A stretch of DNA of 64,000 bases from NCBI GenBank assembly GCA_965230915.1, contig OZ246395.1, forward strand, positions 140,019 through 204,018. The letters run 5' to 3'. Source of the stretch: an uncultured Candidatus Saccharibacteria bacterium (GTDB lineage: Bacteria; Patescibacteriota; WWE3; 2-01-FULL-39-13). A program made the position numbers and the translations under genes. How positions within the stretch are numbered: position 1 is the stretch's first letter; the number at the start of each line of letters is the position of its first letter. Of this stretch, positions 22,436 to 63,200 are shown in pieces. A model generated the notes under the pieces. The model was not told where the DNA came from and made no database searches. It saw nothing but the letters and a program-made list of their open reading frames with translations.

Positions 22436-23086
22436 ATGAATCAGAAACTCATATTAAACACACTCGGTAACTTCCTTATGATCTTAGGCTTAGGCATCGC
22501 GGTGTTCACCTATGCACCTATTATTTACTCAGAAGTAAAATATGAGCTATCTCCAAAGCAGAACATCGTTCCCGTTGAAAATGAACACAATAATGACTCT
22601 GATTCAGGCGTATCTGATGAACCTGATTTTGAGAATATTGCCCTTCTAGAGCCGGTTGATCCAGACTTTTCAATTGTCATAAGCAAGATAGACGTTAATG
22701 CACCTGTCATTGAAGATGTGACTACAGTTAATCATGAAGAATACATGGCAGCCTTAAAGCGTGGCGTAGCTCATGCAAGGGGGACATCTCTTCCCGGTGA
22801 ACCTGGTAATATGTTTTTATTCGCGCATTCATCTCTAAACTTTTGGGAATTAGGTCCATACGCTACAGTATTTAATCTTTTAAATAAGCTTGAAAACGGA
22901 GATTTGATTACGGTCTTTTATGATGGCCAAGCATACACATACCAAGTTTATGATATGGAAGTCGTTCCTGGGTGGAACACCGAACCATTTTACGAAGAAT
23001 CAGAAGATGCTACTTTAACTCTTATTACTTGTGATCCACCTGGGTCAACTATTAATAGAAGGGTTGTTAAAGCCCGACTTATTTAA
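22436..23086 (+). CDS. sortase family transpeptidase
   Basis: N-terminal TM anchor, His motif FLFAHSS, catalytic TLxTC motif (ATLTLITCDP), downstream Arg (NRRVVKARL). Confidence 0.7.
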   Translation: MNQKLILNTLGNFLMILGLGIAVFTYAPIIYSEVKYELSPKQNIVPVENEHNNDSDSGVSDEPDFENIALLEPVDPDFSIVISKIDVNAPVIEDVTTVNHEEYMAALKRGVAHARGTSLPGEPGNMFLFAHSSLNFWELGPYATVFNLLNKLENGDLITVFYDGQAYTYQVYDMEVVPGWNTEPFYEESEDATLTLITCDPPGSTINRRVVKARLI

Positions 23087-36397: not shown

Positions 36398-38687
<2,290 letters not shown>

Positions 38688-38709
38688 TAGGCCTTGTTTG
38701 TCATATTAT

Positions 38710-38982
38710 TTAAAGGGATTCTAGGCCGACAAGTATTTCTACTTCGTTTTTTACGCATTTTAAAATACCTTTCCCGATTCTAAGTTGGACTTTTTCATTG
38801 TGGTTGGTTTGGATTAGGATATTTCTCTTAATAATTGATATAAAGCTTTGATGGCCTGGTAGGACATCGAAGCGACCCTCCTCATTTTCCGATGAAACGG
38901 ACTTCGCAGAGCCTGAGTAGATCGTTTTTTCTGATTCTATAACTTTTACCTCTAGTTTTTGTGTTTTATCTTTGGTTTCCAT
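38710..38982 (-). CDS. atpC: ATP synthase epsilon-like protein (N-terminal beta-sandwich only, 90 aa), encoded on the opposite strand, convergent with atpD
   Basis: LEVKVIESEKTIYSGSAKSVSSENEEGRFDVLPGHQSFISIIK matches the epsilon N-terminal-domain pattern (…IVTPE..I..G....V.......G..GIL.GH.P…). The C-terminal helical hairpin is absent. Confidence 0.5.
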   Translation of the reverse strand: METKDKTQKLEVKVIESEKTIYSGSAKSVSSENEEGRFDVLPGHQSFISIIKRNILIQTNHNEKVQLRIGKGILKCVKNEVEILVGLESL

Positions 38983-39143
38983 TACTACTATTCTAAGGCT
39001 ATATCTTATTGGTGTCTATTTGAGGTGCATGGAGGTTTATCTATTTAGCTTCTGTCATAGTTCTTGAGCTGAAATTGAGTAAAAAAATTTTGGTTATGGG
39101 GTACTTTTTTAGTGCAAAAAACTCGCGAGAAAAAATTACACTA

Positions 39144-39172
39144 TTGCTATGCTTTCAAAGCTTTTGTATAAT
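39144..39172 (+). promoter_or_regulatory. putative sigma70-type promoter for the giant gene: TTGCTA, 17-nt spacer, TG-TATAAT
   Basis: -35-like ttgcta (39144-39149), 17-nt spacer, then tgTATAAT (-10 at 39167-39172), ~38 nt upstream of the ATG at 39210. Confidence 0.4.
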
Positions 39173-39209
39173 TTTCTCATCACGAGATTTTTAAAATTAA
39201 TCCCTGCCC

Positions 39210-42200
39210 ATGGATACAACGAATCTTGACAATTTAAGAGATGTTAATCGGTTAGTACCAACTGACGAGATTATTAAACTTGCCAAAGATAGTGGAGTTA
39301 AATTCGGTTTCGGAGATGCAAGAAATCGTATCAGATACTTCGTTAAAAATGGGCTTCTTCCTCATCAAGTCCGTAAAGTTTTAGACGGAAAAATTACACC
39401 TCATCTTCCATACTCTGCACTTGAGAGGCTAATTGAAATCCAGGATCTTCAAACTACTTTTAAATATACAATCCCTCAACTTATAGAGCATTTTAATGAC
39501 TCTAACGTAAAGCAAGAGCGTTCAAAGTTTGAAGGATCAACTCCACAACCTATTGATGTTCCTGAAGAAGAGATTGTCGATGAAACAGTAAGTTCCACCT
39601 CTAATACCCCAGTTGCTCCTAATTCCGTGATAGATGCAACAAATGCTGCATCAGCCAATAGCATAGGTTCTGGGGATAATAATTCCTCTGTTATAGAAGA
39701 AGTTAAGCCACAAAAAAATGGTGGTTTTCAACCAATCGTCGGTAGCGAAGCTAGTAAGTTAGAAGTTGCGAATGGGAAGGTAAATGTAGGAGATTTGGCA
39801 AATGATGAGTTAGAAAATAAGACAGCAAAAGAGGTTGCGACAAAGCATGTCGGTAAGTACGCCTTAATTGCAGCTGGATTTTTACTTCTATTAATAGGTG
39901 TCATATCTCCATCGTTAGTAAGTGGTAAAGGTATTAATTTAGGTTGGCTGAAGAACGGGTTAAGTGATAGTTTTGGATTTTTACAAGATAAGGTAAATAA
40001 TGATGAAAATGCTCCTGCTGCTTCGGGCAACTTGGCGCAAAATGTCACAGATAGCACACAGGTAAGCTCAAATACTAATACAACAAATACTCAGGCATCG
40101 GTTTCAATATTTGGAATAAATATTCCAGCATATTTTTCAAATACGACTACATTCGGATCAGATGTCAATTTTGAGGGAAACCTTAATATAGAAAACCAGG
40201 ATATCAATTTGGGAACCGGGTCAATTCTTGCCTCAAATATTATCTACACAATTACGGGTGGAAATGGAATGCAGGTTTCGGCTGGCCAAAACCCTGTAAT
40301 TACAAATACTGGTGTATTAAGTATAGGTGGAGAATCAGGTGACATTGAATTAGCGGCTGGTGAAGGTATTGAAGTTGATGGAACCCAAATTACTAATATA
40401 GGAGTCCTTAGCCTTGGTGGAGAAACAGGTGAGCTTGAATTATCTGCTGGTGCAGATATAGATATAAATGGTTTACAAGTTGCACTTCAACCGGTACTAG
40501 ATACGGTTGAACAGATAAATTTGCCTGCAGATTCTGCAACAGCTTTGAAATTTGGCGGTATTGGAATTGGCCAAGCTGGTACATCGGTTTCTACATCGGG
40601 AGCTTCTTTAATCGGAATATATGACAATTTAGTCAACAGCTCAGCATCGAATCTACAATTGGCAGTTTCGGATATCGATACAGCGATAGGTGATCGCGAT
40701 TATTCGTTCCCACATTACATATCAGACGGACAAACTGTGACAGAAAGTTTAGAAACTTTAGATTCAACAATTTGGGGAATAGTCGGAGGTTCGATTGTCT
40801 GGTTTGATGGGGGCAATTACGTTTATACATCTGATTCTGAATACTTGGGAAATCCAACTAGTGGAGGAGCTAATAAAGTTACTGGGCTTTTCCTAGAAGA
40901 TAATGCCCCTATAACTTTTGGTACAAGCAATAATTTTACTGCTGTATTTGATGGAACACAGTTCGCTATGACGGATGGTTCTAACATTTTTATGAGTTTA
41001 GTTGATAGTGGTGCAAGCGCGAATTTTGCAATTAACAGGGATGACTTATTTGTTGCTCATGACGGTAAGGTAGGTATTGGAACAACTGCCCCGAGTTCTG
41101 CTTTACACGTAATCGGAAGTGCCAATATAACCGGTCAATTAACCTTAGGCAATGTTCCAACTGTAGGCGCTACTTCAACTGTGTTAACAAGCAGCTCTGG
41201 AGTTATTTCAGCTATGGATGTAAGCAGTTGGGATCTTGATTCATCCGATGATGTAACCACATTTTTAGGGTTAACAGATACGCCTGCTTCATATGCAGGG
41301 GCTGCTAATTATTTTGTAAGAGTAAATGGTGGCGGTACTGCATTGCAATTTACTGATTTAAGTGCATGGGATCAGGATTCTTCAGATGATTTAACCGGTT
41401 CAGGTGTAGATAGGTTCATTCCACTTTGGAATTCTGCTTCAGACTTGGTAACGTCTATTTTATATCAGGAAAGTGTGACAAATAATGTCGGTATCGGTAC
41501 TACAGATCCTGAATATGCTCTAGATATCGTAGGCGATATCAATACTTCTACAGATTTATTCGTTAATAATATTGCATTAAGTTCAACCGGGGGAGCAGGT
41601 TTAATTGGGGTTGATAGTACCAACATTGCAAATTCTTCAGCCACTATATTGCAAGATGTTTTAGAGGACCTAGACGCTTCTATCCAAAGCGGCTCACATG
41701 ATCCATTAACTTTAGCTGGCTCTTATGATTACTTAACATTAGATGGTCCGAATCAAGTTCTTACTCTAAATCAGATTGATTTAACAACAGGTACCGGAGA
41801 TGTAACTGGTTTATTAGGCGTGACAAATGGTGGTTTAGGCGCAAATGTATCAGCAGCTGGGGCTGGAGAATTGTTATTCTCGACTTCAACAACTGCTTAC
41901 GATTCTTTAAGTGCCGGATCTTCGAATCAGATTTTATTATCGAATGGAGCAGCTTCTCCTAGCTGGGTTAACTTAAGTACTTTGATTTCAGGGGGGGATG
42001 ATATTAGTGTGACCGGAACTACGTCCTTAACAGTTGCTTTGGAGGATAATATAGATCTTATTTCAGTAAATGCTGCCAGTGATGCGGGTATTAGCTTTTA
42101 TGATAATGGTAGCAACTTAGGTATGTTTATCGAGGATGGTGGTCAGATTGGTGTTGGTAGAACAAATCCTGAATACACATTAGATGTATCTGATACAGGA

Positions 42201-45200
42201 AGATTTGGAGGTCAATTGACATTAGCTTCTGTTCCATCTAGTGCAAGCAATAGCGTTTTAGTATATGGAGCGGGCGGAATTGTTTCACAAAGAGATGCTA
42301 GCGGTTGGGATACAGATGCGTCAAATGATGTCACCACTTTCTTGGGATTAACCGATACACCAAGTACATACGCAGGAAGCGCTAACTATATAGTCCGAGT
42401 TAATGGAGCAACAAACGCACTAGAGTTCTTAGATGCAGCAGGTTGGGATCAAAATGCTGCAGATGACTTAACCATTTCAGGAACAGCAAATCGTTCAGCT
42501 AAATTTAATGCATTAGGAAATAATGTAATGGAAGGATCTATAGATGATCTATATAACGCAGTTGCAGTAACAATTGATGCAAGCGGTAAGGTCGGTATCG
42601 GAACAACTGGCCCACAATTTGCATTAGATGTTGTCGGAAGAATTAGAGCTACAACCGATTTAATGGTTGGATCAGTAAATTTGGCTGACAACTCTTCAGC
42701 TGCAAGCGGAGCATCATTAATAGGAGTATTTGATAATAGCTTAACTTATGTTTCTGGTAATACTAATGTTCAAAGTGCTATTGAGCAATTAGATGCAGCA
42801 ATTGCAACAGCATCAGTCGGTGATATTTCTGCGATCGGTGATGTAACAAGTGGCGATGCGTTTACATCGGGCGGAACACAGGGAACAAGTTTATGGTTCT
42901 ATGATGCAGATGGAAGAGGTCAATTAACAATTGCTAACTTAACAGGACCACAGACATACACATTGCCGGACGCTAGCGGTGAGATTTCATTATTGGGTCA
43001 AACAATTGCAAACAACGAATTAGTAAATTCAGATATCACATTCAATGGTGATTCGGGTTCCGCCGCTATCTCCTTGGGCGGGGATTTTGACGTGATCGGC
43101 GGACCCGGAATCAGCACTTCAATATCAGCTACAACACTAACAATTACTAATACTGATTTAGGATCTACACAAAACATCTTCAAGAATATAGCTGTATCTG
43201 GCCAAAACACAGTTGTTGCAGATGCTAACAACGACACAATGACCCTAGTTGCAGGTACAAACGTAACTATTACAACAGACGATACAACTGATTCCGTAAC
43301 AATAAATGCAACAGATACTAATACAACATATACAGCAGGCAACGGTTTAACTTTAGCCGGAACAACATTCAAGTTCGGTGGAACAATTAGCGAAGATACA
43401 AGACTATTTAGTGCTACATCTGGAGAGATTCTATTTGTAAACGATACAACCGGAAATATTGGTTTGGGTATGACAGCTCCAGGCTACAAGTTAGATATAA
43501 ATGGAACAGCTAGAGTAGGCGGTCAATTAACATTAAGCAATGTTCCTTCCACATCTAATAATAATTTAGTGTTAACAGTAAACGGTGGAGTTGTTAGCTC
43601 TATAGATACAAGCGCGTGGGATACAAATGCGTCAAATGATGTCACTACTTTCTTGGGATTAACAGATGCTCCTGACTCATACACAGGCAGCGAGACTTAT
43701 TTAGTAAGAGTAAAGGCAGATGGAACAGGCTTAGAATTTGTAGATCCTGCGACAGTAGGCGGAGTTAACTCAGTCACAAATAGTGATGGAACATTAACAA
43801 TCTCTCCAACAACCGGAGCTGTTGTTGCTTCATTAAATTTAAATCAAGCAAACGCTTGGCTAGCTGCTCAAACATTTAGTGCCAATACATATTTTGGTGG
43901 AAATGGAATTTGGAGTTCTACAGGTGATGTCGGTATCGGTACAACTGCACCAGCATATAAACTTGATGTTGTTGGTGGAATTAGAACAACAACAGACTTG
44001 TTTGTAGGCAATATTGGATTAGGAACAACACAGCCTACAGGCTCAGGAGCTTCACTAGTTGGCGTTTATAATGGAAACTTAACAAACTCTATTGCTACAA
44101 ATGTTCAGTCTGTATTAGAGGATTTAGATGCTGCAATAGCAGGTTCTTCACACGATGCAGTTACATTAGCAGGTGCATACGATTACTTAACATTAAGTGG
44201 CCAACAGATTACATTGCAACAGATTGATTTAACTGAGGATGTAATAGGAGTATTGCCAACCTCAAATGGCGGTACCGGGCTAAATATTGATCCTACTGCA
44301 ATTGCTGACGGCCAGATTTTAATTGGAAACAATGCTGGTGACACATTTAGCTTAGCTACTATAACTCAAGGAACAGGTATTTCTATAACAAACGGTTCAG
44401 GAACAATTACTATTGCCAACTCTGACTTGGGTTCTAGCCAAAATATCTTTAAGAATATAGCTGTAAATGATCAAGGAACTGTGTCAACTGATACAAACAA
44501 TGACACTTTGACATTAGTCGCAGGAACAAACGTAAGTATTACAACCGATACCGGATCAGATTCAATAACAATTAACGCTACCGACACAGATACAACATAC
44601 ACAGCAGGCAATGGTTTAACTTTAGCAGGAACAACCTTCAAATTCGGTGGAACAATAACAGAGCCTACAAGATTAGCTGATGGCTCATTCGAATATCTAT
44701 TCTTAAATAATGCAAATGGAAGAGTAGGTATTGGAACAACTAACTCAGGTAGCAAGCTATCGGTAAGCGGTAACCAATCTATCGGTTCTACATATGCATT
44801 ATTGGCGGCTCCAACTAATGGATTAATCGTAGAAGGAAATACAGGAATCGGAGTAACGGCAACTATCTACCAATTAGAAGTTGGCGGAACAGCGGCTGTA
44901 CAAAACCTAGTATTAGGTGGAACACAAATAACAACAACTGGAACCGAAATTAATTTACTAAGCGGATTAACATCGACTTCAACAGAACTGAACTACCTAG
45001 ACGGAACAACAGTTCCAGCTGGTGCAGTGATGTTCGGAGACGGAACAAAGATTACAAATGATATTTCTAATTTCTTCTTTAATGATTCAACAAACAGATT
45101 AGGTTTGGGAACATCATCTCCAGATGCGACAATCGATGTCGCCGGTACAGCATGGTTACGAGGTAATTTATCCGCAGAAGGTTTATATGTTAACTCATCA

Positions 45201-48200
45201 GGTAATGTCGGAATCGGCGGAACAGCTGCTACTAGTGCTCCATTCTTCTTTAATACTTCGAGCGGATTTGCTACTAACTTAAGTTCAGCAACAGCATTAA
45301 CAGTTGGAGCAAACGGAACAGCATATGCAACATTTGATACTACACTTGGTTCTTCTAGTGACTTATTAAGCCTAAATGCTCCTGCTGGAAGCACATTAGG
45401 AAACTTATTTGCGATTTATGATAATGGTTCTCCGGTATTTAAGGTTTCACAGAACCAAATCGAGTCGGCTGTTCCACATACATTTACAGCAGCAGGTGAT
45501 GTTTCGATGTCTTATGATTTGAATTTCACCAACCCAACGGCTGCATATATAAACTTTGATGGTCCTGGTTATATCAGAACGAATAATCCAAGCGGCAACT
45601 ATGATTTAACATTAAGCGCAGCTAATAGCGGAGTGGTTTATATCGATGACAACTTAACAATTAGCGGAACTCAATTAACATTAACAAATGCTGCTGCATT
45701 AGACTTAGCGGCGTCGACAACAGCTCTAAATATCGAAAATGGTTTATTGAACTTAGATTCTACAAATGCAAGAGTTGGAATCGGAACAACAGTTCCAGGA
45801 TCTACATTATCTGTTGCAGGTAATCAAGCTATCGGTGCAACTTATGCAAGATTAGCAGCCCCAACAAACGGATTAATAGTGGAAGGTAACGTCGGAATTG
45901 GATTTACTGCAACAAACTACAAGTTGGCAGTAGCTGGAACAGCAGCAGTTTCTAATTTTGTACTTGGCGGAACACAAATCACAGCAACTGGCGCAGAAAT
46001 TAACTTACTAAGCGGATTAACTTCTACATCAAGCGAGCTTAACTACTTAGATGGAACAACCGTTGTAGCAGGTGGAGTAATGTTTGGAGATGGAACAAAG
46101 ATTGCCCAGGATACATCTAATTTCTTCTTTGATAGCGCAAGTAAGAGATTAGCAATCGGAACATCAGCAGCAAATAGCGGTTTAACAGTAATGGGATCAG
46201 GATCATTCGGCGCTGGTTATTCAAATATCGGAATTTCAGCTCCATTAAATGGCTTACTAGTGCAAGGAAATGTCGGAATCGGAATGACAAATCCTGGAGC
46301 ATTCGCTCTTAATGTAAACGGAAACATCAAGACTTCTGGCGACCTATTCATCGGAAACATCGGACTTGGAACAACAAATAGCGCAACTTCATCAGGAGCA
46401 TATTTAGTAGGAGTATTTGACGAATTTGATAACTCTAACTCTACAAATGTTCAGGCTGTATTAAACGATTTAGACGCAGCAATTGCTTCATCTGCGGGAG
46501 GATCAATTACTGGAATCGGCGACGTATCCTCAGGAGATGCATTTACAGCAGGTGGAACAAGCGGAACATCGCTATGGTTCTATGATCCACAAGGCCGTGG
46601 CCAATTAACAATCGCCAACTTAACAGGTGCACAAACATATACACTTCCAGATGCTAGTGGAGAGATCTCATTATTAGGTCAGACAATCGGTAATGCAGAA
46701 TTAGATAATTCAACAATTACATTTAATGCAGATACAGGTACTGTTGCATCAGCATTGGGTGATAGCTTCGCAATAAATGGAGGACCAGGTATAAGTACAG
46801 AAATCTCTGGAACAACATTAACAATCACAAATACAGACCTAGGCTCAAGCCAAAATATCTTTAAGAACATTTCGGTAAGCGGTCAAGGAACTGTATCTAC
46901 CGATACAAATAACGACACTTTGACATTAGTTGCAGGCACAAATGTAACTATAACTACTGATACAGGTTCGGATTCGATAACAATTAATGCAACAGACACA
47001 AATACAACATATACGGCTGGTAATGGTTTAACCTTAGCTACCACCACATTTAAGCTAGGTGGAACCATTACCGAAGACACAAGGCTTGCAAACGGTTCGT
47101 TTGACTACATCTTCTTAAATAACTCGGACGGAAACGTCGGTATTGGAACAACTGGTCCATTGTTTAAATTAGATGTAAACGGAACCGCAAGATTTACAGG
47201 AAACGTAACATTGGGTTCTGTTCCTGCTGATTCAAGTAACAACGTATTGGTATTAGATGGAAGCGGAGTTGTTTCTCAAAGAGATATAAGTGCATTCGAC
47301 CAAAATGCGTCAGATGATGTCACTACATTCCTAGGATTAACGGATACTCCAAGCTCATATACCGGAAATGAAACATACTTAGTAAGAGTGAATGCAGCAG
47401 GTAATGCTTTAGAATTTATCGACCCAACTACAGTAGGTGGAGTTAACTCAGTTGCAAATAGTGATGGAACATTAACAATCTCTCCAACAACAGGAAATGT
47501 AGTGGCTTCAATTAATTTAAACAACGCAAATGTATGGACAGGAAGCCAAACATTTAGCGCAAATACATACTTCCCAGGTAGCGGAGTTTGGGACACATCT
47601 GGCGATGTTGGAATTGGAACGACAGATCCACAATATAAATTGGATGTGGCTGGCTCTATAAATGTACTGGGCTTCTATCTATCAGGTGTTGCGCTTACTT
47701 CTTCTGCAGATGAATTAAACATTTTAGATGGAGCAACTCTTTCGACTTCTGAACTGAATATCTTAGACGGCGTTACTTCTACGGCAGCTGAAATTAATTA
47801 CCTAGATAACTCGACTGTATTAGCAGGAGGAATGGTGTTCGGAAATGGAACTAACTTTACACAAGATGTTTCAAACGTTTTCTACAATTCAACAACAAAG
47901 AGACTTGGAATCGGAACATCAACACCTGGAAACACTTTAGGTGTTGCCGGCGCAGCCGCAATCGGATCAGGTTACGCAGGAACTGGAATTTCTGCTCCGG
48001 CAAACGGCTTACTGGTACAAGGTAATGTCGGAATTGGAACAACTAATCCTGCATTCAAACTTGATGTAAATGGAGATATAAGAGTTGTCTCTGGTTCAGA
48101 TTTATATATCGGTGCAATCGGAATGAACGATAATGCATCGTTATCATCGGGAGCTTCATTGATCGGCTTATATGACGATTCAATGACATATATAAGTGGA

Positions 48201-51200
48201 AATACAACAGTTCAGGATGCAATAAAACAATTAGATACCGCAATCGCATCGGCAGCAACCGGAGACATAACTGCAATCGGTGACGTAGCAAGTGGCGCAG
48301 CATTCACATCAGGTGGAACACAGGGTACAAGTTTATGGTTCTACGATCCACAAGGTCGCGGTCAATTAACGATCGCAAACTTAACAGGTGACCAGACATA
48401 CACATTGCCAGACGCATCAGGAGAAATTTCATTACTTGGTCAGACGATAGGTAATTCAGAGCTTGAAAATTCAACAATCACATTCGCAGGTGATACAGGC
48501 TCTAATGCATCAGCCCTTGGAACAACATTCAATATCGTAGGCGGAACCGGAATCGGAACATCAGTAGGAGGAAACAACGTGTCGATCATAAACACCGATC
48601 GTGGTTCATCACAGAGTATATTCAAGAACTTCGCAGTAAGCGGTCAAAACACAGTAGTTGCAGATGCAAACAACGACACCTTAACACTAGCCGCCGGATC
48701 AAACATAACTATCACAACAAATGACACAACAGACACAATTACAATTGCTGCAACCGATACAAATACAACATACACAGCAGGCAACGGTTTAACATTGGCT
48801 ACAACTCAATTCAAGTTAGGTGGTCAAATAACAGAGCCAACAAGATTATTCGACGGGTCAAACGAATACTTATACATCAACCCTAATACAGGAAATCTTG
48901 GTATTGGTACAACAAATTCAGGCTACAAACTAGAAGTTAACGGAACATTCAATGCTGCAAGCGGATTCTACTTAGCAGGCTCACAAGTAACATCAAATGC
49001 ATCCGAATTAAATATATTAGACGGAGCAACACTAAATACAACAGAGCTTAACTACCTAGACGGCACAACTGTTGTAGCGGGAGGAATAACATTCGGAAAC
49101 GGTTCATATATCGCTCAAGATCCAGCTGATTTCTTCTGGAACAACACCTCAAACAGATTAGGTTTAGGAACATCTGCTCCAACAACTACATTAGATGTTG
49201 CAGGAACCTTTAGAGTAACAGGGAACACAACATTAGGCGATGCATCAGGTGATACGGTAACTTCAAACGCTGCTTCTTGGATATTCGCAAATGCAACAAC
49301 AATCGATTTAGCAAATTCAACAGCTGCATTAAGTATTGAAGGCGGATTATTAGGATTTGACTCGTCAAATGGAAGAATCGGAATCGGAACTACAGCTCCA
49401 AGTAAAACACTAGATGTGATTGGTGGAATAAGAACAACAGATGATTTATACGTAGGATTAATCGGTCTAAATGATAACGGATCAACATCATCAGGATCTT
49501 CATTAATCGGCTTATACGACAATAGCTTAGTTTACATTTCCGGAAATACTACAGTTCAAAGTGCGATCGAGCAGTTAGATGCAGCAATTGCAACAACCGC
49601 AGGTAATCAACACGATCCTGTAACCCTTGCAGGTTCACTAGCCTACTTAACATTAAATGACCAAGAAATAACTTTGAATGCGATTGACTTAACAACCGAT
49701 GTATCTGGAGTTCTTCCATTGGAAAATGGGGGAACAGGCAAGAATATCGACGGAACTGCAATTACAAATGGCCAGATTTTAATTGGGAATGCTACTACCG
49801 ACGGATTCGACCTTGCAACAATAACTCAAGGAACCGGTATTTCTGTAACAAATGGAGCAGGTTCAATCACAATTACAAATACCGATTTAGGATCAAGCCA
49901 GAATATCTTTAAGAATATAGCTGTAAATGATCAAGGAACTGTGTCAACTGATACAAACAATGACACATTAACATTAGTCGCTGGAACAAACGTAACGATC
50001 ACAACCGATGACACAACAGACTCAATAACAATTAACGCTACAGATACAAACACAACATACACAGCAGGCAATGGATTAACTTTAGCGGGAACAGTATTCA
50101 AGTTTGGTGGAACAATAACAGAACCAACAAGATTAGCTGACGGTTCATTTGAATACCTATTCTTAAATAATGCAAATGGAAGAGTAGGTATAGGAACAAC
50201 TAACTCAGGTAGCAAGCTTGGTATAGCCGGAAACGTAGGTATCGGAAACTCATATGCAACATATGCCGCTCCAGCTAATGGATTGATAGTAGAAGGTAAC
50301 ATTGGAGTTGGATTTACAGCTACAAATTATAAACTCGGTGTAAACGGAACAGCAGCTGTTTCAAACCTAGTACTTGGCGGAACACAGATTACAGCTACAG
50401 GTACAGAGATTAACAAATTAAGTGGATTAACTTCATCAACTGCAGAATTAAATATATTAACAGGCGTCACAACAAACGCTACAGAACTTAATTATCTAAC
50501 CGGATCATCAGTAGTATCTGGCGGAATAGTTTTTGGGGATGGAAGCAAATTCACACAAGATGCTGCTAACTTATTCTTCAATAACACATCAAAGAATTTA
50601 TCAATTGGTTCAACCGCAGGTGGTAGCAGACTTTCAGTAAATGGTGGAGCAGCAATCGGTTCTGGCTATATCGGAACAGCACTTTCAGCTCCAACAAACG
50701 GACTTCTTGTTCAAGGAAATGTTGGAATTGGAACAACAAACCCAGGAACTTATGCATTGAACGTAAATGGAACTGCAAATGCAAATGCATTATCAATTGG
50801 TAACTTACTATTATCAGCAAATTCAACTGCTACATCAGGCGGAACTTTAGTCGGAATTAATGACAACTCATTAACATATGTTTCTGCTAATACAAATGTC
50901 CAATCAGCAATCGAACAATTAGACGCAGCAATGTCATCAAACTTTAGCGGAGTAATAACAGCAATTGGTGATGTAACAGCAGGGGACGCATTCACATCAG
51001 GTGGGACACAAGGTACAAGCCTATGGTTCTACGATGCACAGGGCCGTGGCCAATTAACAATTGCTGATTTAACAAGTGCAAGAACATACACATTGCCAGA
51101 TGCCAGTGGGGAAATTTCATTACTAGGACAAACAATTTCTAATGCTGAGCTAGATAATTCAACAATCACATTCGCAGGGGACACAGGTTCAAATGCTTCA

Positions 51201-54200
51201 GCATTAGGAACAACATTCAACATCGTAGGTGGAACCGGCATCGGAACATCAGTTGGAGGAAACAACGTGTCGATCATAAACACTGATCGTGGCTCTTCAC
51301 AAAATATCTTCAAGAACTTTGCAGTAAGCGGTCAAAACACAGTATCAACCGATACAAACAACGACACATTAACATTAGTCGCTGGAACAAATGTAACAAT
51401 CACAACCGATGACACAACAGACTCAGTAACAATTAACGCTACAGATACAAATACAACATATACAGCAGGCAACGGTTTAACTTTAGCCGGAACAACCTTC
51501 AAGTTTGGTGGAACAATAACAGAGCCTACAAGATTAGCCGATGGTTCTTTTGAATACTTATTCTTAAATAACGGAAATGGAAGAGTGGGTATTGGCGCTA
51601 CAAACTCAGGAAGCAAATTATCAGTAGCTGGAAACGTAGGTATCGGAAACTCATATGCAACATATGCAGCTCCAGCAAACGGATTAATCGTAGAAGGCAA
51701 CACCGGTTTAGGAGTAACAGCTACAAACTTCAAGCTAGAGGTTGGAGGAACAGCAGCTGTTAAGAACTTAGTATTGGGTGGAACTCAAATAACAGCAACA
51801 GGAACTGAATTAAACAAACTAACAGGAGCAACACTATCAACAACAGAATTAAATTATCTAACAGGCACCACTGTTACATCAGGTGGAGTTCTATTCGGGG
51901 ACGGAACAAAGATTACTAACGATTCAGCTAACTTCTTCTGGAACGATTCAACAAATAGATTGGGTTTAGGGACAACAGCTCCTGGTCAGCAATTAGAATT
52001 AACTGGAAATATATTGTTACAAGGTAGCGGAAAGATTTACTTTGACGGTCCTGCATCAACCAACTATTCGATCTCGAGAAGTGCAAATAGATTCAGATTA
52101 GATTCTGCAGATTCATTTACTATTGGTTTAGACTCAACTGGATTAACGGGTGATGCTTTCTTAAATATAACTGACAGAAATGTTTCAAGAGTTTACATGG
52201 ATGCAAATGGTTTATTTGGAATCGGAACATCCGCTCCAGAAAGCTTGTTAACAGTTAAAGGAAATGCATCTATTGGTTCGGGTTATACAGGAATCGGAAT
52301 TTCATCCCCGTTAAATGGATTATTAGTTCAAGGTAACGTCGGAATCGGAAACACAAACCCAGGTGCATATGCATTAAATGTAACCGGAAACCAAAATATC
52401 AGCGGAACACTAACACTTGGGACAGTTAACTCAACATCAAACAACAATCAGGTACTAACAGTAAATAATGGGGTTGTTAGCTACATCGATACAAGCGGAT
52501 GGGATACAAACGCTTCAAATGATATTTCAACATTCTTAGGATTAACAGATACTCCAAGCTCATACAGCGGGGTTGGTAGCCAATTTGTAAGGGTGAACGC
52601 AGGTGAATCAGCTTTAGAATTCGTCGACTTATCAGCATGGGATCAAAATGCTGCAGATGATTTAACAATCTCTGGAACCGATAATAGAATCGCAAGGTTC
52701 AATGCGGCAGGTAATAACGTAGAAAATTCATCAATCGATGACGCATACACAGGTGGAGTTGCTCTAAGAATATTTGCAAATGGAACAATCGGAATCGGAG
52801 TAACTGCAACCAATTATCAATTAGCCGTCGGTGGAACTGCTTCGGTTTCAAACCTTGTATTAGGCGGAACTCAATTAACTGTAACTGGAACAGAATTAAA
52901 TCTATTAAGCGGATTAACCGCAACTTCATCCGAACTAAACATCTTAGACGGAGCAACATTATCAACGGCTGAATTAAATATTCTTGATGGCGCGACAGTT
53001 ACAGCTGCAGAACTTAATTACTTAGATAATTCATCAGTATTAGCAGGCGGATTAGTATTTGGAAACAACAGCAACTTTACACAAGATGTAGCAAATATTT
53101 TCTGGAACGATTCAACAAAGAGGTTAGGAATTGGAACATCGGCTCCAGGCCAAACATTATCAGTTGCTGGAACATTCGGTATAAAAGAAGGCGGATCATC
53201 TCCACATTTCTTTACAGCATTCCAGGGCGGAGACCAAAGCGCAGATATAACTTACACATTGCCAGTTGATGACGGATCAAGCGACTACGTTTTAGTAACC
53301 GATGGAAATGGAGTTCTTAGCTGGCAATCAGTCGGCGGAGTAGGTGCAGGAACCGGAGATATAACAGCAGTAATTGCTGGCGGAGGTTTATCTGGTGGAG
53401 CTTCAACAGGTGACGCAACACTCGATATCGGAGCTGGAAACGGTATCACTGTAAATGCAGATGATATTGCTATAAAGCTTGCAATATCATCAGGTGTTGG
53501 TGCAACAGCTTCATACTCCGGATTAGAAGTAAATTCAAACGGATTAAGTATGTTAACAGGTTGCGGTCAGGGCGAAATTTTAACTTGGGATGATTCCAAT
53601 AACATCTGGAAATGCGCTTCTATCGCATCATCAGGCGGAATAACTGGAACAGGTACAGCTAACTATGTTCCTTTATGGAATACATCATCAGATTTAACAA
53701 ATTCAGTAATCTATCAAACAGGTTCTAGTTTAGGAATTGGAACAACTGTCCCTGGAAGCAATCTATCAGTAAGCGGAAATCAGGCTATTGGTGCTTTATA
53801 TTCACGATATGCAGCTCCAGCGAATGGATTAATCGTAGAAGGTAACGTTGGAATCGGTTATACAGCTACAAATTACAAACTTGCAGTAGCTGGAACGGCA
53901 GCATTCAGCAACTTAGTACTTGGTGGAACACAAATTACAGCAACTGGAACAGAAATCAATAAATTAGCTGGCTTAACATCATCGACATCTGAACTAAACA
54001 TTTTAACTGGAGTAACTGCAAATGCTACAGAAATAAATTACCTAGATAATTCAAGCGTATTGGCAGGCGGATTAGTATTTGGAAACGGATCGAACTTTAC
54101 ACAAGATGTCGGAAGTATTTTCTTTGATTCAACAAATAAGAGATTGGGAGTCGGAACTTCAGCCCCAACAAGTGCTTTATCAGTAAATGGTGGAGCTGCA

Positions 54201-57200
54201 ATTGGTTCTGGTTATGCAGGTGGTGGAGTTTCTGCTCCAACAAATGGCTTATTGGTACAGGGTAGAGTTGGAATTGGAACAACCAATCCATCCTCAACAT
54301 ATGCTTTAGATGTAAATGGATCAATAAGAGCAACTTCATTAAATACAGCAAGCTCAACATATCAAAATGCTTTAATTTCAAATTCAGGTGCGTTCAACGT
54401 TAGTGTAGGAGGCGGAAGCAACTTATACATGACACTAAATGGAACTTCAGCTTCAGATAACTATATCGTTAGAACTGGTACAACAGATTTATTTAGAGTA
54501 GGTGGAAATGGCAAAGTCGGAATCGGAACAACAGCTCCAGAATCATTATTATCAGTAAAAGGTAATCAAACAATTGGCGCCGGTTACACAGGAATCGGAA
54601 TCTCAGCCCCAGTAAATGGTCTATTAGTCCAAGGTGTAGTCGGAATCGGCATGACCAACCCAGGTGCATTCGGATTAAACGTTGGAACAGGAATCAATAC
54701 ATTAGACGATCTATACGTAAATTCAGTCGGCCTAAATGATAACGCTTCAACAACCTCTGGAGCTTCATTAATCGGATTAAATGACGATTCAATGACATAC
54801 ATTTCCGGAAACACAACAGTACAAAGCGCAATCAAACAATTAGATACAGCAATTTCTTCAGGTCTAGGCGGAACAATAACAGCAATCGGAGATGTAACAT
54901 CTGGTGATGCATTTACATCAGCTGGAACACAAGGAACATCACTTTTCTTCTACGATCCACAAGGTCATGGCCAATTAACAATTGCAAACTTAACAGGTGA
55001 TCAAACTTATACACTTCCAGATGCAAGTGGAGAAATTTCTCTTCTTGGCCAAACAATCAGCAATTCAGAGTTAGTAAATTCAGATATCACATTCAATGGT
55101 GATTCGGGTTCCGCCGCTATTTCCCTGGGCGGGGATATTGACGTGATCGGCGGACCCGGAATCAGCACTTCAATATCAGGTACAACACTAACAATTACTA
55201 ATACCGATTTAGGCTCTACACAAAACATCTTCAAGAATATAGCTGTATCTGGCCAAAATACAGTTGTTGCAGATGCTAACAACGACACAATGACCCTAGT
55301 TGCAGGTACAAACGTAACTATTACAACAGACGATACAACTGATTCCATAACAATCGCAGCTACCGACACAAACACAACATACACAGCAGGAAACGGTTTA
55401 ACTCTTGCATCTACAACATTTAAACTTGGTGGAACAATCAGCGAAGATACTAGACTCGCAAATGGTTCTTTTGAATACTTATTCTTGAACAATGCAAACG
55501 GAAGAGTCGGAGTTGGAACAACAAATTCAGGATCAAAATTATCTGTAAATGGTAATCAAGCAATCGGAGCAACTTATGCTTCTTATGCAGCTCCAGCAAA
55601 TGGATTAATCGTAGAAGGAAACACTGGTCTTGGTGTAACTGCAACAATCTATAAACTCGAAGTTGGCGGAACAGCAGCTGTTAAGAATTTGGTATTAAAT
55701 GGAACACAAATAACAGCAACCGGAACCGAAATCAACAAATTATCTGGCTTAACATCTTCAACAGCAGAACTAAATATTTTAACCGGAGTAACAACCAATG
55801 GTACTGAGCTCAATTATTTAGATAATTCAACAGTATTAGCAGGTGGATTAGTATTTGGAAACGGTTCTAATTTCACTCAAGATATTTCAAACATCTTCTT
55901 TAATAGCACTTCAAAGAATCTTGGTATCGGAACATCAGCTCCAGGAAGCAGATTGTCAGTAGCAGGTGGAGCAGCAATCGGATCAGGATATGTAGGGTCA
56001 GGCTTATCAGCTCCAACAAACGGACTTCTTGTTCAAGGAAATGTCGGAATTGGAACAACAAACCCAGGAACATATGCGCTAAATGTTGCAGGCGGAGTAA
56101 ATGTTTCAACCTTATCGATTGGCAACTTACTATTATCAGCAAATTCAACCGCAACATCAGGAGCAACATTAGTTGGATTAAATGACGATTCACTAACTTA
56201 TGTAAGTGGAAACACAAGTGTTCAAGATGCTATTAAACAACTTGACACGGCAATTGCAACAGCAGCAACAGGTGATATTTCAGCAATCGGTGACGTAGCA
56301 AGTGGCGCAGCATTTACATCAGGTGGGACACAAGGTACAAGTTTATGGTTCTATGACCCACAAGGTCGTGGTCAATTAACGATCGCAAACTTAACAGGTG
56401 ACCAGACATACACATTACCAGATGCATCAGGAGAAATTTCATTACTAGGACAAACAATTTCTAATGCTGAGCTAGATAATTCAACAATCACATTCGCAGG
56501 TGATACAGGGTCAAATGCTTCAGCATTAGGAACAACATTCAACATCGTAGGTGGAACCGGAATCGGAACATCAGTAGGTGGAAACATCGTGTCGATCATA
56601 AACACCGATCGTGGTTCATCACAGAGTATATTTAAGAATATTGCCGTAAGCGGTCAGAATACCGTAGTTTCAGATGCAAACAACGATACATTAACACTTG
56701 CAGCAGGTTCTAACGTAACAATCACAACAAACGACACTACAGACACAATTACAATTGCTGCAACCGATACAAACACAACATATACAGCAGGCAACGGTTT
56801 AACTCTCGCTTCAACAACATTCAAACTCGGCGGATCTATTACAGAACCAACAAGATTATCAGACGGATCATTCGAATACTTGTTCTTAAATAATGGAAAC
56901 GGAAGAGTAGGTATAGGAACAACAAACTCAGGTTCTAAACTCGGCATAGCTGGAAACGTAGGTATCGGAAACTCATATGCAACATATGCAGCTCCATCTA
57001 ACGGTTTGATAGTTGAAGGGAATGTAGGCTTAGGTGTAACGGCAACAAACTTCAGATTAAGCGTAAATGGAACAGCTGCGGTTACAAACTTAGTACTAGG
57101 TGGAACTCAAATTACAGCAACTGGCACTGAAATCAATTTATTGTCAGGTTTAACATCAACTTCAACCGAGCTTAACTACTTAGATGGTACAACAATAACT

Positions 57201-60200
57201 TCAGGCGGAGTTTTATTTGGCGATGGAAGCAAGATCACAAATGATGTTTCAAACTTCTTCTTTAACTCAACAACAAAGAGATTAGCAATTGGAACATCAG
57301 CAGCAAATAGCGGTTTAACAGTAAATGGTAGCGGATCATTCGGCGCTGGTTATTCAAATATCGGAATTTCAGCTCCACTAAATGGATTATTAGTACAAGG
57401 CAATGTCGGAATTGGAACAACAAACCCAGGAACATATGCATTAAATGTTGCCGGTACAGCAAATGTAAACGCTTTATCTATCGGAAACTTATTACTAAGC
57501 GCAAATTCATCCGCTACATCGGGTGCAACTTTAGTCGGACTAAATGACAACTCATTAACATACGTATCTGGAAATACAAACGTTCAATCGGCTATCGAAC
57601 AACTTGATGCAGCAATCGCAACAGCAGCAACTGGCGACATTTCAGCAATTGGCGACGTAACAAGCGGCGCAGCATTTACATCGGGCGGAACACAGGGAAC
57701 AAGTTTATGGTTCTATGATGCAGATGGAAGAGGTCAATTAACAATCGATAACTTATCAGCTGCAAGAACCTACACATTACCAAATGCATCAGGTGAAATT
57801 TCATTACTGGGCCAAACAATCAGTAACGCAGAGTTAGTTAATTCAGATATTACATTCAATGGTGATTCGGGTTCCGCCGCTATTTCCCTGGGCGGGGATT
57901 TTGACGTGATCGGCGGACCCGGAATCAGCACTTCAATATCAGGTACAACACTAACAATTACTAATACCGATTTAGGCTCTACACAAAACATCTTCAAGAA
58001 TATAGCTGTATCTGGTCAAAATACAGTTGTTGCAGATGCTAACAACGATACAATAACCCTAGTTGCAGGATCAAATGTAACAATCACAACAAATGACACC
58101 ACAGACACAATTACAATTGCTGCTACAGATACAAATACAACTTACACAGCAGGCAACGGTTTAACATTGGCGACAACTCAATTCAAGTTAGGCGGTCAAA
58201 TAACAGAGCCAACAAGATTATTCGATGGATCTAATGAGTATTTATATATAAATCCAAACACAGGTAATTTAGGTATTGGAACAACAAATTCAGCATACAA
58301 ACTAGAAGTAAATGGAAGCTTCAACGCAGCTGGTAATTTCTATTTAGCAGGTTCTCAGGTAACTTCATCAGCTGCTGAATTAAATATCTTAGATGGTGTA
58401 ACATCAAATGCTACAGAACTTAACTACCTGGATAACTCAACAGTTGTGTCAGGCGGAATGGTATTTGGTAATGGAAGCAACTTCACACAAGATGCAGCAA
58501 ATATTTTCTACAACTCAACAACAAAGAGACTTGCAATCGGAACATCGGCAGCAAATAGTGGCTTAACCGTAAATGGTAGTGGTTCATTTGGAGCAGGTTA
58601 CTCAAATATCGGAATTTCAGCACCATTAAATGGATTACTGGTGCAAGGAAACGTCGGTATTGGAACAACCAACCCTTCGGCGACATTAGATGTAGCAGGT
58701 AATATCAAACTTGGAACAGCTGGTAATAGCGCCACAATCACTTTCCCAGTAACGACTTCTGGTTCAAGCTTCGTACCTTTGATTCAGAGTATCTACGGAT
58801 CTAACGCGCTTCGTATGAGCATGGATAGCAGTAACTATATTCAAATCCTTGGTAGTGGTGGTGGTGCAAATATTCAGAGTGGTGGAAGTAATTTTACACT
58901 TAATGGTACTGCAGCAACATTCAGCTTAAACGGTTTTGGGGAAGTCTTTAGAGCCACCAGTTCAGGAACTGTTGGTATTGGAACATCAGTACCTGGAAGT
59001 AAATTATCAGTTAGTGGCAATCAAGCAATCGGAGCTTTGTATTCAAGATATGCAGCTCCAACCGATGGATTAATCGTTCAAGGAAATGTCGGAATTGGTT
59101 ACACCGCAACAAACTATGCGTTAGGCGTAAATGGAACCGGTAACTTCTCAGATTTAGCAATTGGAGGAACATTATTCTCGGCAAATTCATCGGCAACATC
59201 TGGAGCTTCATTGGTCGGATTAAATGACGACGCAATGACATACATAAGTTCTAATACAAACGTTCAAAGCGCAATCAAACAATTAGATACAGCAATTGCA
59301 TCGGTTTCAGGTTCAGCAATAACAATCTCAGGAACCGACAACAGATTAGCAAGATTTAATGCAGCCGGTAATAACGTCGAAGATTCATCACTCAATGATT
59401 TATATACAGGCGGAGTTGCATTAACAATTGGAGCAAATGGAAATGTTGGAATCGGTTACACAGCAACCAACTATAGATTGGCAGTAGCTGGAACAGCAGC
59501 GTTACAAAACTTAGTACTTGGAGGAACACAAATCACTGCTACTGGAACAGAAATAAACAAACTATCTGGATTAACCTCATCAACAGCTGAATTAAATATT
59601 TTAACTGGTGTAACAACAAATGCTACAGAACTAAACTATCTAGACAATTCAACAGTCGTATCCGGCGGATTAGTCTTCGGAAACGGATCAAACTTTACAC
59701 AAGATACATCAGACTTATTCTGGAACAGCTCTCTAAACAGATTAGGAGTTGGAACATCAGGCCCAGAAAGCACATTAACCGTAAAAGGTGGGGCAACAAT
59801 AGGCGCAGGTTATACAGGAATTGGAATTTCGGCTCCAACAAATGGATTATTAGTACAAGGAAACGTTGGAATCGGAACAACCGCTCCAATTCAAGCTTTG
59901 GACGTGTCAGGAAGTATCAGGGCTACTGGTTCGGGTAACTTTTCTGGAACTGTAATTGCTAAAGCAGGGAGTGCATCAGATCCTGCATATCAATTCCAAG
60001 GCTTAGGTAATGTAGGCATGTATATGGTTGCCACTGGATTAGGGTTCTCATCTGCTGGTCTGGAAAGAATGCGTATAGACGTAAATGGCAACGTTGGAAT
60101 CGGAACAACTGCTCCTTCATACAAACTCGACGTAAACGGTGATGCAAGAGTAGCTTCAGGATCAGACTTCTATGTCGGTTCAATCGGCCTAAACGACACA

Positions 60201-63200
60201 GCAGGAACATCAACATCAGGTGCATCACTAGTCGGTGCATTCGACGAATTCGCATACTCATCATCAAGCAATGTTCAAGACGTGTTAGACGATTTGGATG
60301 CAGCAATCGCAACAGTATCAGGCTCAGCTTTAACAATCTCCGGAACCGACAATAGAATCGCTAGATTCAATGCTGCAGGCAACAATGTTGAAGATTCATC
60401 TCTAAACGATAACTACACAGGTGGAGTTGCATTAACAATCGACACAGAAGGCGACATCGGAATCGGAGTAACAGCTTCAATCTACAAATTAAATGTAAAC
60501 GGAAGTTTGAACACAACAGCTTTATCCCTAGGCGGGTCACAGGTAAACTCATCAGCCGCAGAAATAAATGTATTACAAGGTGTTAACACGGGAACACTAA
60601 CAGGTTCAGAACTTAACTTGGTAGATGGAGCAACCGCTACAAATGGCGGACTAGTCTTCGGAAATGGAACAAGATTTGCACAGGATGCTGCAAGTTTATT
60701 CTGGGATGATTCGAATAATAGATTAGGTATTGGGATAACCGCACCTGCTCAGGCTCTAGATGTAATGGGTTCGATCAGATCAAACGGAAGCTATTTAATC
60801 AATGGAAACTCTAATTTCATACTAAATGGAACTACTTTGAATTTGGGATCTAATGACGCTGTTATACAAGCAAAATGGGGTAGCGCAAACTTAAATATTA
60901 GGTCTGGCGATATTGGTGGATACGGAACGATCTCATTCCAGAGAACAAATGGCACTCCTATTACAACAATGTTTATAGATGCTTTAGGCAACATCGGAGT
61001 TGGTACCACAGCTCCAGAAAGCAGATTCACACTAGCAGGCAACGCATCAATCGGCTCTGGTTACACAGCAATCGGAATCTCAGCTCCAACAAATGGACTT
61101 CTAGTTCAAGGTAACGTAGGGCTAGGCTTAACAAACCCAGGCTCATTCAACTTAAACGTAAACGGAACAACAAGACTTGGTGGAGCATTAACTTTAGGAA
61201 CAGTTAACTCAACAGCAAACAATAACCAGGTATTAACAGTAAATTCTGGAGTAGTAAGTTACATCGACACAAGCACATGGGATACCGATTCATCAAACGA
61301 TTTAACAATCTCAGGTACTGATAACAGAATCGCAAGATTTAATGCAGCAGGAACAAACGTCGAAAACTCTTCAATAAATGATAACTATACTGGTGGAGTC
61401 GCATTAACAATCGATGCAGAAGGCGATGTCGGAATCGGCGTAACAGCTTCAATCTATAAATTAGCAGTCGGTGGAACCGCATCTGTATCTAGCTTGGTAC
61501 TAGGTGGAACTCAAATAACTGCAACCGGAACCGAAATTAACAAATTAAGCGGATTAACTTCATCAACATCAGAACTCAACTTACTAACAGGCGTCAACTT
61601 AACATTATCTGCTTCAGAAATAAATACATTAGACGGAATAACATCATCAACAGCTGAACTAAATTATGTAGACAACGCAACTGTAACTTCTGGTGGAATG
61701 GTATTTGGAAACGGTTCCAACTTCACTCAGGATGCTGCAAATATTTTCTATAACAGCACAACAAAGAGACTTTCAATCGGAACATCAGCAGCAAATAGCG
61801 GTTTAACAGTAAACGGATCAGGATCATTCGGCGCTGGTTATTCAAATATCGGAATTTCAGCTCCATTAAATGGCTTACTAGTGCAAGGAAACGTTGGAAT
61901 CGGAAACACAAACCCAGGCGGTTATGCACTGGCAGTCGGCGGAACAGCAAATGTTTCTAACTTATCTATCGGCGGATTATTATTAAATACAAATTCATCT
62001 GCCACATCTGGCGGAACATTAGTCGGAATCAACGATAATAGCTTGACCTATATCTCAGGTAACACTAATGCTCAGTCAGCAATCGAACAATTAGATGCAG
62101 CAATAGTAAGCGTTGCAAGCGGAGCATCAGGACTTTGGACCGATGCTGGTACAACAACTTACTTAACAACATTAACCGACAACGTCGGAATTGGAGTAAC
62201 AGCTACAAACTACAAGTTAGCAGTAAGTGGAACAGCAGCTGTAAGCAACCTGGTACTTGGTGGAACTCAAATCACTGCAACTGGAACTGAAATCAATTTA
62301 TTAAGCGGATTAACAGCTACATCGTCAGAATTAAATATCTTAGATGGTGCAACACTAAATACAACCGAGCTTAACTACCTAGATAACTCAACAGTAGTAT
62401 CAGGCGGAATGGTGTTCGGAAACGGTACAAACTTTACACAAGACACTGCAAATATCTTCTGGAATTCAACAACAAAGAGATTCGGTATCGGGACAAGTGC
62501 TCCAAGAAGCGCATTAACAGTATCGGGTAATGGTTCGTTCGGAGCAGGTTACGCAGCAATTGGAATCTCAGCTCCACTAAATGGCTTACTAGTCGAAGGC
62601 AATACTGGCATCGGAGTAACGGCAACTATCTATAAATTAGAAGTGGGTGGAACAGCCGCTGTTAAGAACTTAGTACTTGGTGGAACTCAAATCACATCAA
62701 GCGCTACAGAATTAAACAAACTAACAGGTGCAACATTATCTACAGCCGAACTTAACTACTTAACCGGAACAACAGTTACAAATGGTGGAGTTCTTTATGG
62801 CGACGGATCAAAGATCACAAACGATGTTTCTAACTTCTTCTTTAACAGCACATCAAAGAGATTGTCTATTGGTACTTCCGCAGCTAATAGCGGCTTAACA
62901 GTAAATGGTTCGGGATCATTTGGTGCAGGTTATTCAAATGCTGGAATTTCAGCTCCATTAAATGGATTAATCGTACAGGGTAATACAGGTATCGGATCAT
63001 CTGCTCCATCAGCATTATTATCGGTAGGCGCTTCAAATCAATTCTTGGTTAACTCATCAGGAAACATTGATAGAATCGGCGGAGTTAATCATACAATCAG
63101 CAACAATGGTGGAAACTTATTATTAACCGGAAATGGTGAACTTCAATTTGACGATTCGACATTGGCATCAGCAGTTCAATTAACTGATTTAGATAACTCA

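Follow-up and report, generated by a model that had tools for sequence, protein, structure and literature searches.

How a single gene comes to carry stretches of nearly identical DNA scattered among repeats that are otherwise far diverged is the question raised by a giant open reading frame (ORF) on contig OZ246395.1 of an uncultured bacterium, within the stretch of 64,000 nt that we analyzed as one window (positions 1-64,000, to which all coordinates refer). The ORF lies on the plus strand at 39210-63998; its frame is open from 39201, has an ATG at 39210 and continues without interruption to the final complete codon that the window contains, which gives an open length of 24.8 kb and more than 8,260 codons, with the 3' end of the gene and its downstream side outside the window. 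An earlier note on this DNA had described the gene as a mosaic of recurring DNA cassettes and had taken the mosaic as a sign of recombinational variability at the cell surface. We find that the mosaic exists, and propose that sporadic gene conversion, acting from repeat to repeat within the gene, has probably been superimposed on ancient modular repeats.

A blastn comparison of the window with itself returned 163 repeat pairs of 60-84% identity, all of them inside the giant ORF and from 42306 onward, and the background DNA identity between repeats is mostly 65-78%. Motif anchors resolve this region into seven QWT units (composed of Q, W and T modules), two QHT units, two QR units, DDR blocks and variable numbers of L and E modules; the first QWT unit spans 42690-43529 (+), and the remaining six, likewise placed by motif anchors and codon alignment on the plus strand, start at 46371, 48132, 50820, 54741, 56142 and 57504. 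Within this diverged background, a stringent, mismatch-intolerant self-alignment of the window reveals in-frame islands of 130-520 nt and 88-99% identity, which cover approximately 4 kb of the 21 kb of repeat region. The high-identity DNA blocks reported in the earlier note are therefore real, as the self-alignment shows discrete islands rather than just diffuse similarity.

Cassette A is present in three copies, all on the plus strand. Copy 1 (43020-43303) is 97.2% identical to 55071-55354 over 284 nt, and its segment 43020-43255 is 95.3% identical to 57834-58069 over 236 nt; copy 2 (55047-55354) is the union of the tracts in common with copies 1 and 3; and copy 3 (57810-58069), which matches 55047-55306 at 96.5% over 260 nt, ends at a breakpoint at 58067/58070. 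The value of about 97% first given for this cassette holds up, as the intervals from which it was drawn yield 96.9% for copies 1 and 2, 96.3% for copies 1 and 3 and 98.9% for copies 2 and 3. Cassette B extends over 48273-48793 (+) in copy 1 and 56283-56803 (+) in copy 2, with 90.2% identity over 521 nt and a proportion of synonymous differences (pS) of 0.29-0.36, and copy 2 is itself mosaic, its segment 56433-56614 matching 51111-51292 at 95.6% over 182 nt. A B-type tract (58070-58225, +) that resembles 48698-48853 follows directly after cassette A copy 3; the alignment of 48642-48853 with 58014-58225 reaches 91.0% over 212 nt, and in 50-nt windows the identity is 92-96% at 58100-58200, falling to 62-80% past 58250. 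What had been claimed for cassette B thus stands for the first two copies (90.9%) but not for the third, since identity between copies 1 and 3 is only 81.5% over 58060-58470, and the extents to 58470 and 49130 were overstated.

Further plus-strand tracts connect other parts of the gene. Two QHT units have in common a tract at 44436-44758 and 49896-50218 (90.4% over 323 nt), and a QHT and a QWT unit one at 49944-50296 and 51345-51697 (88.7% over 354 nt), so that one and the same T-module cassette stands behind different upstream modules, as the description of cassettes in different orders and contexts had anticipated. A tract at 46153-46284 has its partner 15.6 kb away, at 61774-61905 (97.0% over 132 nt, including a 77-nt exact match), and a 71-nt tract at 42861-42931 is 100% identical to 57675-57745. 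The latter is parted from cassette A by approximately 90 nt of lower identity, which indicates that conversion is patchy. All 53 exact repeats of at least 25 nt are in frame, with a spacing that is a multiple of three, the longest measuring 115, 87, 77, 71, 68 and 65 nt, and self-alignments reveal no repeat copies outside the giant ORF in window positions 1-39200.

Whether such islands record exchange or conservation can be read from the synonymous sites of the seven codon-aligned QWT units. Within 840 nt, the identity of one unit pair swings from 45% to 100% between 60-nt windows, and pS lies at saturation (0.45-0.82) in almost every pair and segment. The W module has a proportion of nonsynonymous differences (pN) of about 0.1, yet its pS is 0.45-0.70; with synonymous sites saturated despite such low pN, constraint on the protein does not preserve similarity of the DNA. 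In cassette A, by contrast, pS is 0.06-0.17 inside the cassette, whereas the flanking segments of these pairs give 0.43-0.71, and a single pair passes from 0.6-0.7 to the low values and returns within one unit of 840 nt; pS amounts to 0.29-0.39 in B-type tracts and to 0.23 between units 48132 and 57504 in the segment after A (segment 4). These values bear on the explanation that no exchange occurred, and that the islands reflect strong purifying selection on protein or nucleotide sequence or the remnants of a recent duplication of whole units. The cassettes do code for the conserved cores of modules, and A and B are discrete types of protein, A being a same-length protein homologue of B and not an insertion. 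A whole-unit duplication, however, would leave contiguous similarity, whereas the flanks of the same pairs are saturated and unit 57504 is first A-like and then 48132-like. We consider conservation or whole-unit duplication highly improbable as the source of the islands, and the synonymous-site analysis, including the W module, already contradicts it.

The arrangement of the differences along the units points in the same direction. In a GENECONV-style test, where the longest run of concordant polymorphic sites is compared with 2,000 permutations of site order, the longest runs count 61, 42, 33 and 33 sites, whereas no permutation exceeds 32, so that four pairs are significant at a global p <= 0.0005. 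At the informative sites of unit 57504, the 54741 copy is favored 87:4 over 57812-58067 and the 48132 copy 79:12 over 58070-58342, with the switch of parent falling within 3 nt, at 58067/58070; the direct passage of the third cassette A copy into cassette B, already pointed out in the earlier note, is hence a sharp breakpoint (87:4, then 12:79). Unit 42690 follows 54741 only at 43020-43295 (95:4 informative sites), unit 56142 is by turns 48132-like and 50820-like in a triplet analysis, and the triplet parentage blocks have Fisher p values of 1e-18 to 4e-34. The tract ends differ among the A1/A2, A2/A3 and A1/A3 pairs, and at least two events are therefore needed to account for cassette A. Taken together, the pS contrast, the long runs, the switching of parents and the differing tract ends argue for non-reciprocal transfer of segments within the gene, and the presence of a RadA homologue in the window indicates that recombination machinery exists.

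The islands are set into an older layout. Unit spacings of 1401 and 1362 nt define a periodicity of approximately 1.4 kb, and the adjacent units 54741, 56142 and 57504 are only 70-76% identical overall, high identity being limited to non-adjacent islands. The periodicity and the long 70-76% alignments are best read as the traces of old tandem duplications. Of the two processes that had been suggested, recent intragenic gene conversion is the one borne out by the islands, whereas unequal crossing-over fits the old ~1.4-kb periodicity but not the short tracts.

Repeats of this kind can also mislead assembly, and copies that were cross-polished or mis-joined would take on false near-identity or appear as chimeras. 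The repeat region is known from one assembly, for which long reads or curation must have been required, since assemblies of short reads from this organism come to an end at the first repeats of the gene or ahead of them; contig L001, for example, stops at 40612. Nevertheless, we regard such an artefact as very unlikely, as the flanks of the islands are 25-55% diverged, so that reads would not cross-map, the islands themselves differ by 1-10% and are always in frame, the 24.8-kb ORF stays open, and the longest exact match, at 115 nt, lies below the span of ordinary read pairs. The organism is found in two public runs, and the adjacent sequence is 100% identical to the independently derived Logan contigs of SRR14271365. 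The second strain, represented by L001 (Logan SRR14271343), differs from window positions 38661-40612 at 6 of 1,952 sites; every one of these is synonymous and falls within the giant gene (39443-40526), and the 550 nt upstream of it are free of differences.

A like pattern, moreover, recurs in unrelated assemblies. Among 95 related loci that we fetched from GTDB genomes and JGI metagenomes and scanned, large homologous genes of unrelated organisms contain in-frame cassettes of 170-430 nt and 93-100% identity whose flanks are unalignable in register. The cassette-bearing relatives are L016 (from a Pseudomonadales metagenome-assembled genome, MAG), L005 (a Gammaproteobacteria MAG), L007 (an Actinobacteria MAG), L041, L039 and L009, and identities of 98-100% between cassettes in diverged flanks are reached in Pseudomonadales, Gammaproteobacteria, Actinobacteria and other MAGs; in-frame, near-identical pairs are found, for instance, at 8792-9221 and 12920-13349 of L016 and at 7620-7932 and 10239-10551 of L005. 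The same cassette pattern in independently assembled MAGs makes an artefact of a single assembly less likely, and cassette-wise reuse seems to be a habit of this gene class.

One feature of cassette A sets it apart from the other tracts. Each copy contains a GC-rich, codon-atypical patch (43050-43115, 55101-55166 and 57864-57929, +; codon scan and folding) with an imperfect 16-bp inverted repeat, GATTCGGGTTCCGCCG ... CGGCGGACCCGGAATC. The corresponding 20-codon segments (43053-43112, 55104-55163 and 57867-57926) are the three most codon-atypical windows of the gene (z of -5.1 to -5.8), with a third-position GC content (GC3) of 0.65-0.70 versus 0.25 for the gene, and the rare codons involved (TCG, GCC, GGC, GGG, CCC and GTG) make up both arms of the inverted repeat. 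With a minimum free energy of -33 to -34 kcal/mol, the patches also form the three most stable 90-nt folds within the gene, and dinucleotide shuffling gives them z-scores of -1.9 to -2.6 for the plus strand and of -3.5 for the minus strand. The patch is absent from the homologous positions of the B and C types, and the B-type equivalents, which have the same length and encode similar protein with ordinary codons, fold at only -14 to -15 kcal/mol. The three copies of the patch are too alike for covariation, and the other tracts are devoid of hairpins. A general link between hairpins and cassettes in the related loci was considered and rejected as inconsistent, the cassette of L007 being a different module.

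The distinct codon usage noticed earlier in cassette A is hence genuine in the patch of 20 codons (~60 nt) but not in the rest of the cassette, which as a whole has 41% GC compared with 40% for the gene and outside the patch uses the customary AT-rich codons. Conversion pressure, which the earlier note had offered as one cause, finds no reflection in the other high-identity tracts, as their GC3, once the patches are removed, is 0.260 versus 0.246 for the rest (p = 0.32), and GC-biased conversion was accordingly rejected. The second suggested cause, copying from elsewhere, amounts to a horizontal import of cassette A or of its GC-rich core from a GC-richer homologous gene, followed by spread to three units. 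While the GC3 of the patch and its otherwise rare codons would be in keeping with a foreign source, only ~60 nt are atypical and the remainder of cassette A is as AT-rich as the gene; the core has no exact match in JGI metagenome contigs, GTDB genomes yielded no close homologue, no external source of the patch was found in the window or in either of these two collections, and cassette A is, as described above, a same-length homologue of B. Furthermore, the atypical codons coincide with the arms of the inverted repeat, which suggests a structural rather than a compositional cause. We thus give an import very little credence.

The same hairpins are among the arguments for programmed or high-frequency surface variation, in which self-contained cassette shuffling, perhaps triggered by the hairpin, would generate length and sequence variants between cells. 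Cassette A holds both the strongest hairpins and the most atypical codons of the gene, the longest in-frame exact repeats (115 to 65 nt, listed above) are potential recombination substrates, and the protein would be a surface fiber with modules common to phage tail-fiber proteins, a class known to diversify host recognition. Against this stand the remaining tracts, which have no hairpin, the related loci, where no consistent hairpin association is seen, the second strain, with just six synonymous changes in the comparable part, and the 39 kb upstream, which contain no silent donor cassettes, invertase, recombinase, reverse transcriptase or G4-type initiator. In addition, the cassette copies differ by 1-10% and their pS rises to 0.39, from which the exchange events would be rare and old on the scale of a population. 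Such surface variation is therefore unlikely in our view, and the data indicate change over evolutionary time and not a programmed high-frequency switch. A bolder version, in which the fiber gene of an episymbiotic ultra-small bacterium would by itself diversify the recognition of hosts or prey, with variant modules reassorted inside the gene, the cassette A hairpin initiating recombination by fork stalling or nicking, and each population carrying many fiber isoforms in the manner of phage tail-fiber variation, strikes us as quite unlikely.

In cassette-based antigenic variation, as in Neisseria pilE/pilS, Borrelia vlsE and Mycoplasma genitalium mgpB/MgPar, external silent donors feed high-frequency switching of an expressed gene. 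Systems of this type in bacteria are reviewed in PMC4534519. The giant gene is similar to them in the segmental, non-reciprocal transfer into an expressed surface-protein gene, but differs in that donors and recipients all lie within the expressed ORF and no silent archive is present in window positions 1-39200. A diversity-generating retroelement was likewise considered and rejected, as there is no reverse transcriptase domain among the window ORFs and the differences between the cassette A copies (C/T, T/A, C/G, A/C and others) are not adenine-specific.

We therefore return to sporadic gene conversion on an ancient repeat scaffold as the probable history of the locus. The gene would encode a very long surface fiber, with an N-terminal cytoplasmic segment, one transmembrane helix and thousands of residues of phage-tail-fiber-like modules, and this fiber would have reached its length in the distant past, as ~1.4-kb units were duplicated in tandem and in frame and module types (QWT, QHT, QR, DDR and others) were combined. 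Later, misaligned repeats would have recombined homologously, with stretches of 130-520 nt copied non-reciprocally from unit to unit in at least two separate conversion events for cassette A and in older ones for B, which would have left chimeric units of different parents. The mechanism may have been RecA-type heteroduplex formation or template repair, and the consequence would be a reassortment of module variants, while deletions or duplications could arise through the exact repeats of 65-115 nt, which are in frame. Several points weigh against this proposal: the exchange is read from one assembly and not from direct observation; the permutation test alone cannot separate conversion from strong rate heterogeneity, a distinction that is made by the pS contrast and the parent switching; donor and recipient are not assignable; external donor cassettes are possible beyond the window, where the 3' end and the downstream side of the gene lie; and the hairpin patch in cassette A is unexplained by the gene-conversion model.

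Gene conversion among repeats is already well known as an evolutionary mechanism, and one of the closest parallels to the giant gene is intragenic gene conversion and concerted evolution in large repetitive surface and fiber genes (PMC4534519), with the same exchange of short tracts in one ORF, patchy identity, incongruent parentage and kept frame. In the present case, however, homogenization is very incomplete, as the saturated background shows, and the outcome is a chimera of module variants rather than a uniform array. A second parallel is provided by the Periscope Proteins (SasG, Rib and Sgo_0707), rod- or fiber-like surface proteins whose stalks consist of long tandem repeats that are highly identical in DNA and in protein, the DNA identity being proposed to allow intragenic recombination and length change (PMC8201768). 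Common to both is a long surface stalk gene in which DNA identity would enable intragenic recombination; the repeats of the giant gene, by contrast, are 65-78% identical and its islands non-adjacent, unlike the highly identical tandem repeats of Periscope stalks. The anchors differ as well, being an N-terminal transmembrane helix in the giant protein, whose C-terminus lies beyond the window, and a C-terminal LPXTG motif in the Periscope Proteins.

This anchor is predicted from the composition of the protein. Residues 219-237 (LIAAGFLLLLIGVISPSLV; 39864-39920, +) form the sole strongly hydrophobic segment, with a mean Kyte-Doolittle value of 2.48 in a 19-residue window compared with 1.49 for the next best window of the protein, and this single segment suggests that a short N-terminal stretch lies in the cytoplasm, that one helix crosses the membrane and that the huge remainder is extracellular. 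Glycine, threonine, serine and asparagine account for 47% of the residues, the protein is practically cysteine-free, and charged residues are scarce (E 2.1%, K 1.4%, R 1.4%).

Searches for the giant protein returned no family in Pfam, NCBIfam or PDB sequences and no match at E <= 1e-5 among 50,697 GenBank phage records, and its PHROG match, to phrog_9942 ("tail fiber protein", E = 1.7e-6), is weak and partial. A 467-aa super-repeat has hundreds of homologues, mostly metagenomic, many of which contain PF13884 (Peptidase_S74, the intramolecular chaperone of endosialidases and tail fibers). The best-conserved core comprises approximately 50 aa, SQNIFKNIAVSGQxTVVADxNNDTLTLVAGxNVTITTD, and is found in up to nine tandem copies in homologues, although it corresponds to neither a Pfam family nor a solved structure. 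The T-module core repeat (window positions 55038-55475) is widespread in aquatic metagenomes, in the candidate phyla radiation (CPR), in Proteobacteria, in an archaeal MAG and in uncultured phages. An AlphaFold model of the T module (146 aa, 52 sequences; pLDDT 78.6) features beta-hairpins and has no significant structural match in the PDB; in a Foldseek search of BFVD it matches predicted structures of uncultured Caudovirales proteins, one of them named tail fiber, at E = 2e-5 to 6e-3 and with TM-scores of only 0.3-0.37. A model of the whole 280-aa QWT unit (seven internal copies) was set aside as unusable (pLDDT 38).

Phage tail fibers are, as known from the P2 and T-even phages, mosaic genes whose modules are exchanged among fibers. 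The giant gene resembles them in its modular, cassette-wise evolution and may have modules in common with them (the PF13884-containing homologues, the weak phrog_9942 hit and the BFVD matches), but it is chromosomal and cellular, it encodes a membrane-anchored protein of more than 8,260 aa, and the exchange takes place among the repeats of one gene rather than among phages. Giant genes of tens of thousands of codons have been described in predatory and episymbiotic bacteria (bioRxiv 10.1101/2023.11.21.568195); the features common to those reported there and to the present gene are a very large single ORF, an uncultured bacterial host and assembly fragmentation, and a term search of that study gave no instance of "recombination", "tail fiber" or "nucleotide identity".

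Judged from its genes, the host is an ultra-small, Patescibacteria-type CPR bacterium with a genome of approximately 0.95 Mb, a placement that rests on LeuRS homologues and on the resemblance of the post-membrane stem of the giant protein to a protein of the candidate division WWE3. Among named LeuRS homologues, those of "Candidatus Pacebacteria" are the nearest (57-60% identity), other relatives reaching 75-84%, and the homology of the giant protein to the partial homologue P0001 covers aa 304-396, past the transmembrane helix. The giant gene alone takes up more than 2.6% of the ~945-kb genome. Attachment to host cells is the presumed way of life of ultra-small CPR bacteria, whose attachment proteins are, to our knowledge, almost unknown. 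Through exchange between repeats, such a fiber could alter its binding modules or its length in a manner concrete enough to be tested, and the locus is one at which assemblies of short reads break and at which a search for structural variation between strains is merited. Its main interest lies in an uncharacterized giant fiber of a CPR bacterium, together with its odd hairpin patch.

An orthologue search with the N-terminal 600 aa of the giant protein gave only three weak protein matches and none in GTDB genomes. Four partial homologues (P0001, P0002, P0104 and P0113), which come from WWE3 and Patescibacteria, begin with a MerR-type helix-turn-helix (HTH; E = 1e-11 to 1e-13), followed by similar fiber modules. 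Residues 1-110 of the giant protein have no match to the Pfam families MerR, MerR_1 or HTH_17 even at E <= 1; a MerR-reminiscent motif, RxRYFxxxGLLP, is present before the transmembrane helix, and the N-terminus could be a DNA-binding domain that is tethered to the membrane and continues into a giant extracellular fiber. Elsewhere in the window, a 404-aa protein encoded at 24655-25869 (+) combines an N-terminal HTH_17/MerR domain with a long low-complexity region rich in Q, N, G and P, and displays no similarity to the N-terminus of the giant protein.

Two further candidates were considered and dismissed. An antisense gene of 161 aa over cassette A copy 2 (55007-55492, minus strand) is one of 15 antisense open stretches of at least 100 aa along the gene, and its counterpart in copy 3 stays open for only 81 aa. 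The interval 1567-2627, which lacks large ORFs and has local folds of great stability (-34 to -35 kcal/mol), was rejected as a structured RNA, as it contains small minus-strand ORFs (one of 103 aa and one for a 120-aa membrane protein) and has no credible Rfam match.

The giant gene is divergent to the adjoining gene for the epsilon subunit of the F-type ATP synthase operon. A promoter-like site (TTGCTA, a 17-nt spacer and TATAAT; 39144-39172, +) lies 38 nt 5' of the ATG and is a consensus match only, the count of such consensus matches not being above shuffle expectation. Farther upstream, the window encodes the RadA/Sms homologue (2627-4027), the competence channel ComEC with a metallo-beta-lactamase domain (15990-18069), a PEGA-domain protein (23181-24374) and a sortase (22436-23086) that might process surface proteins.

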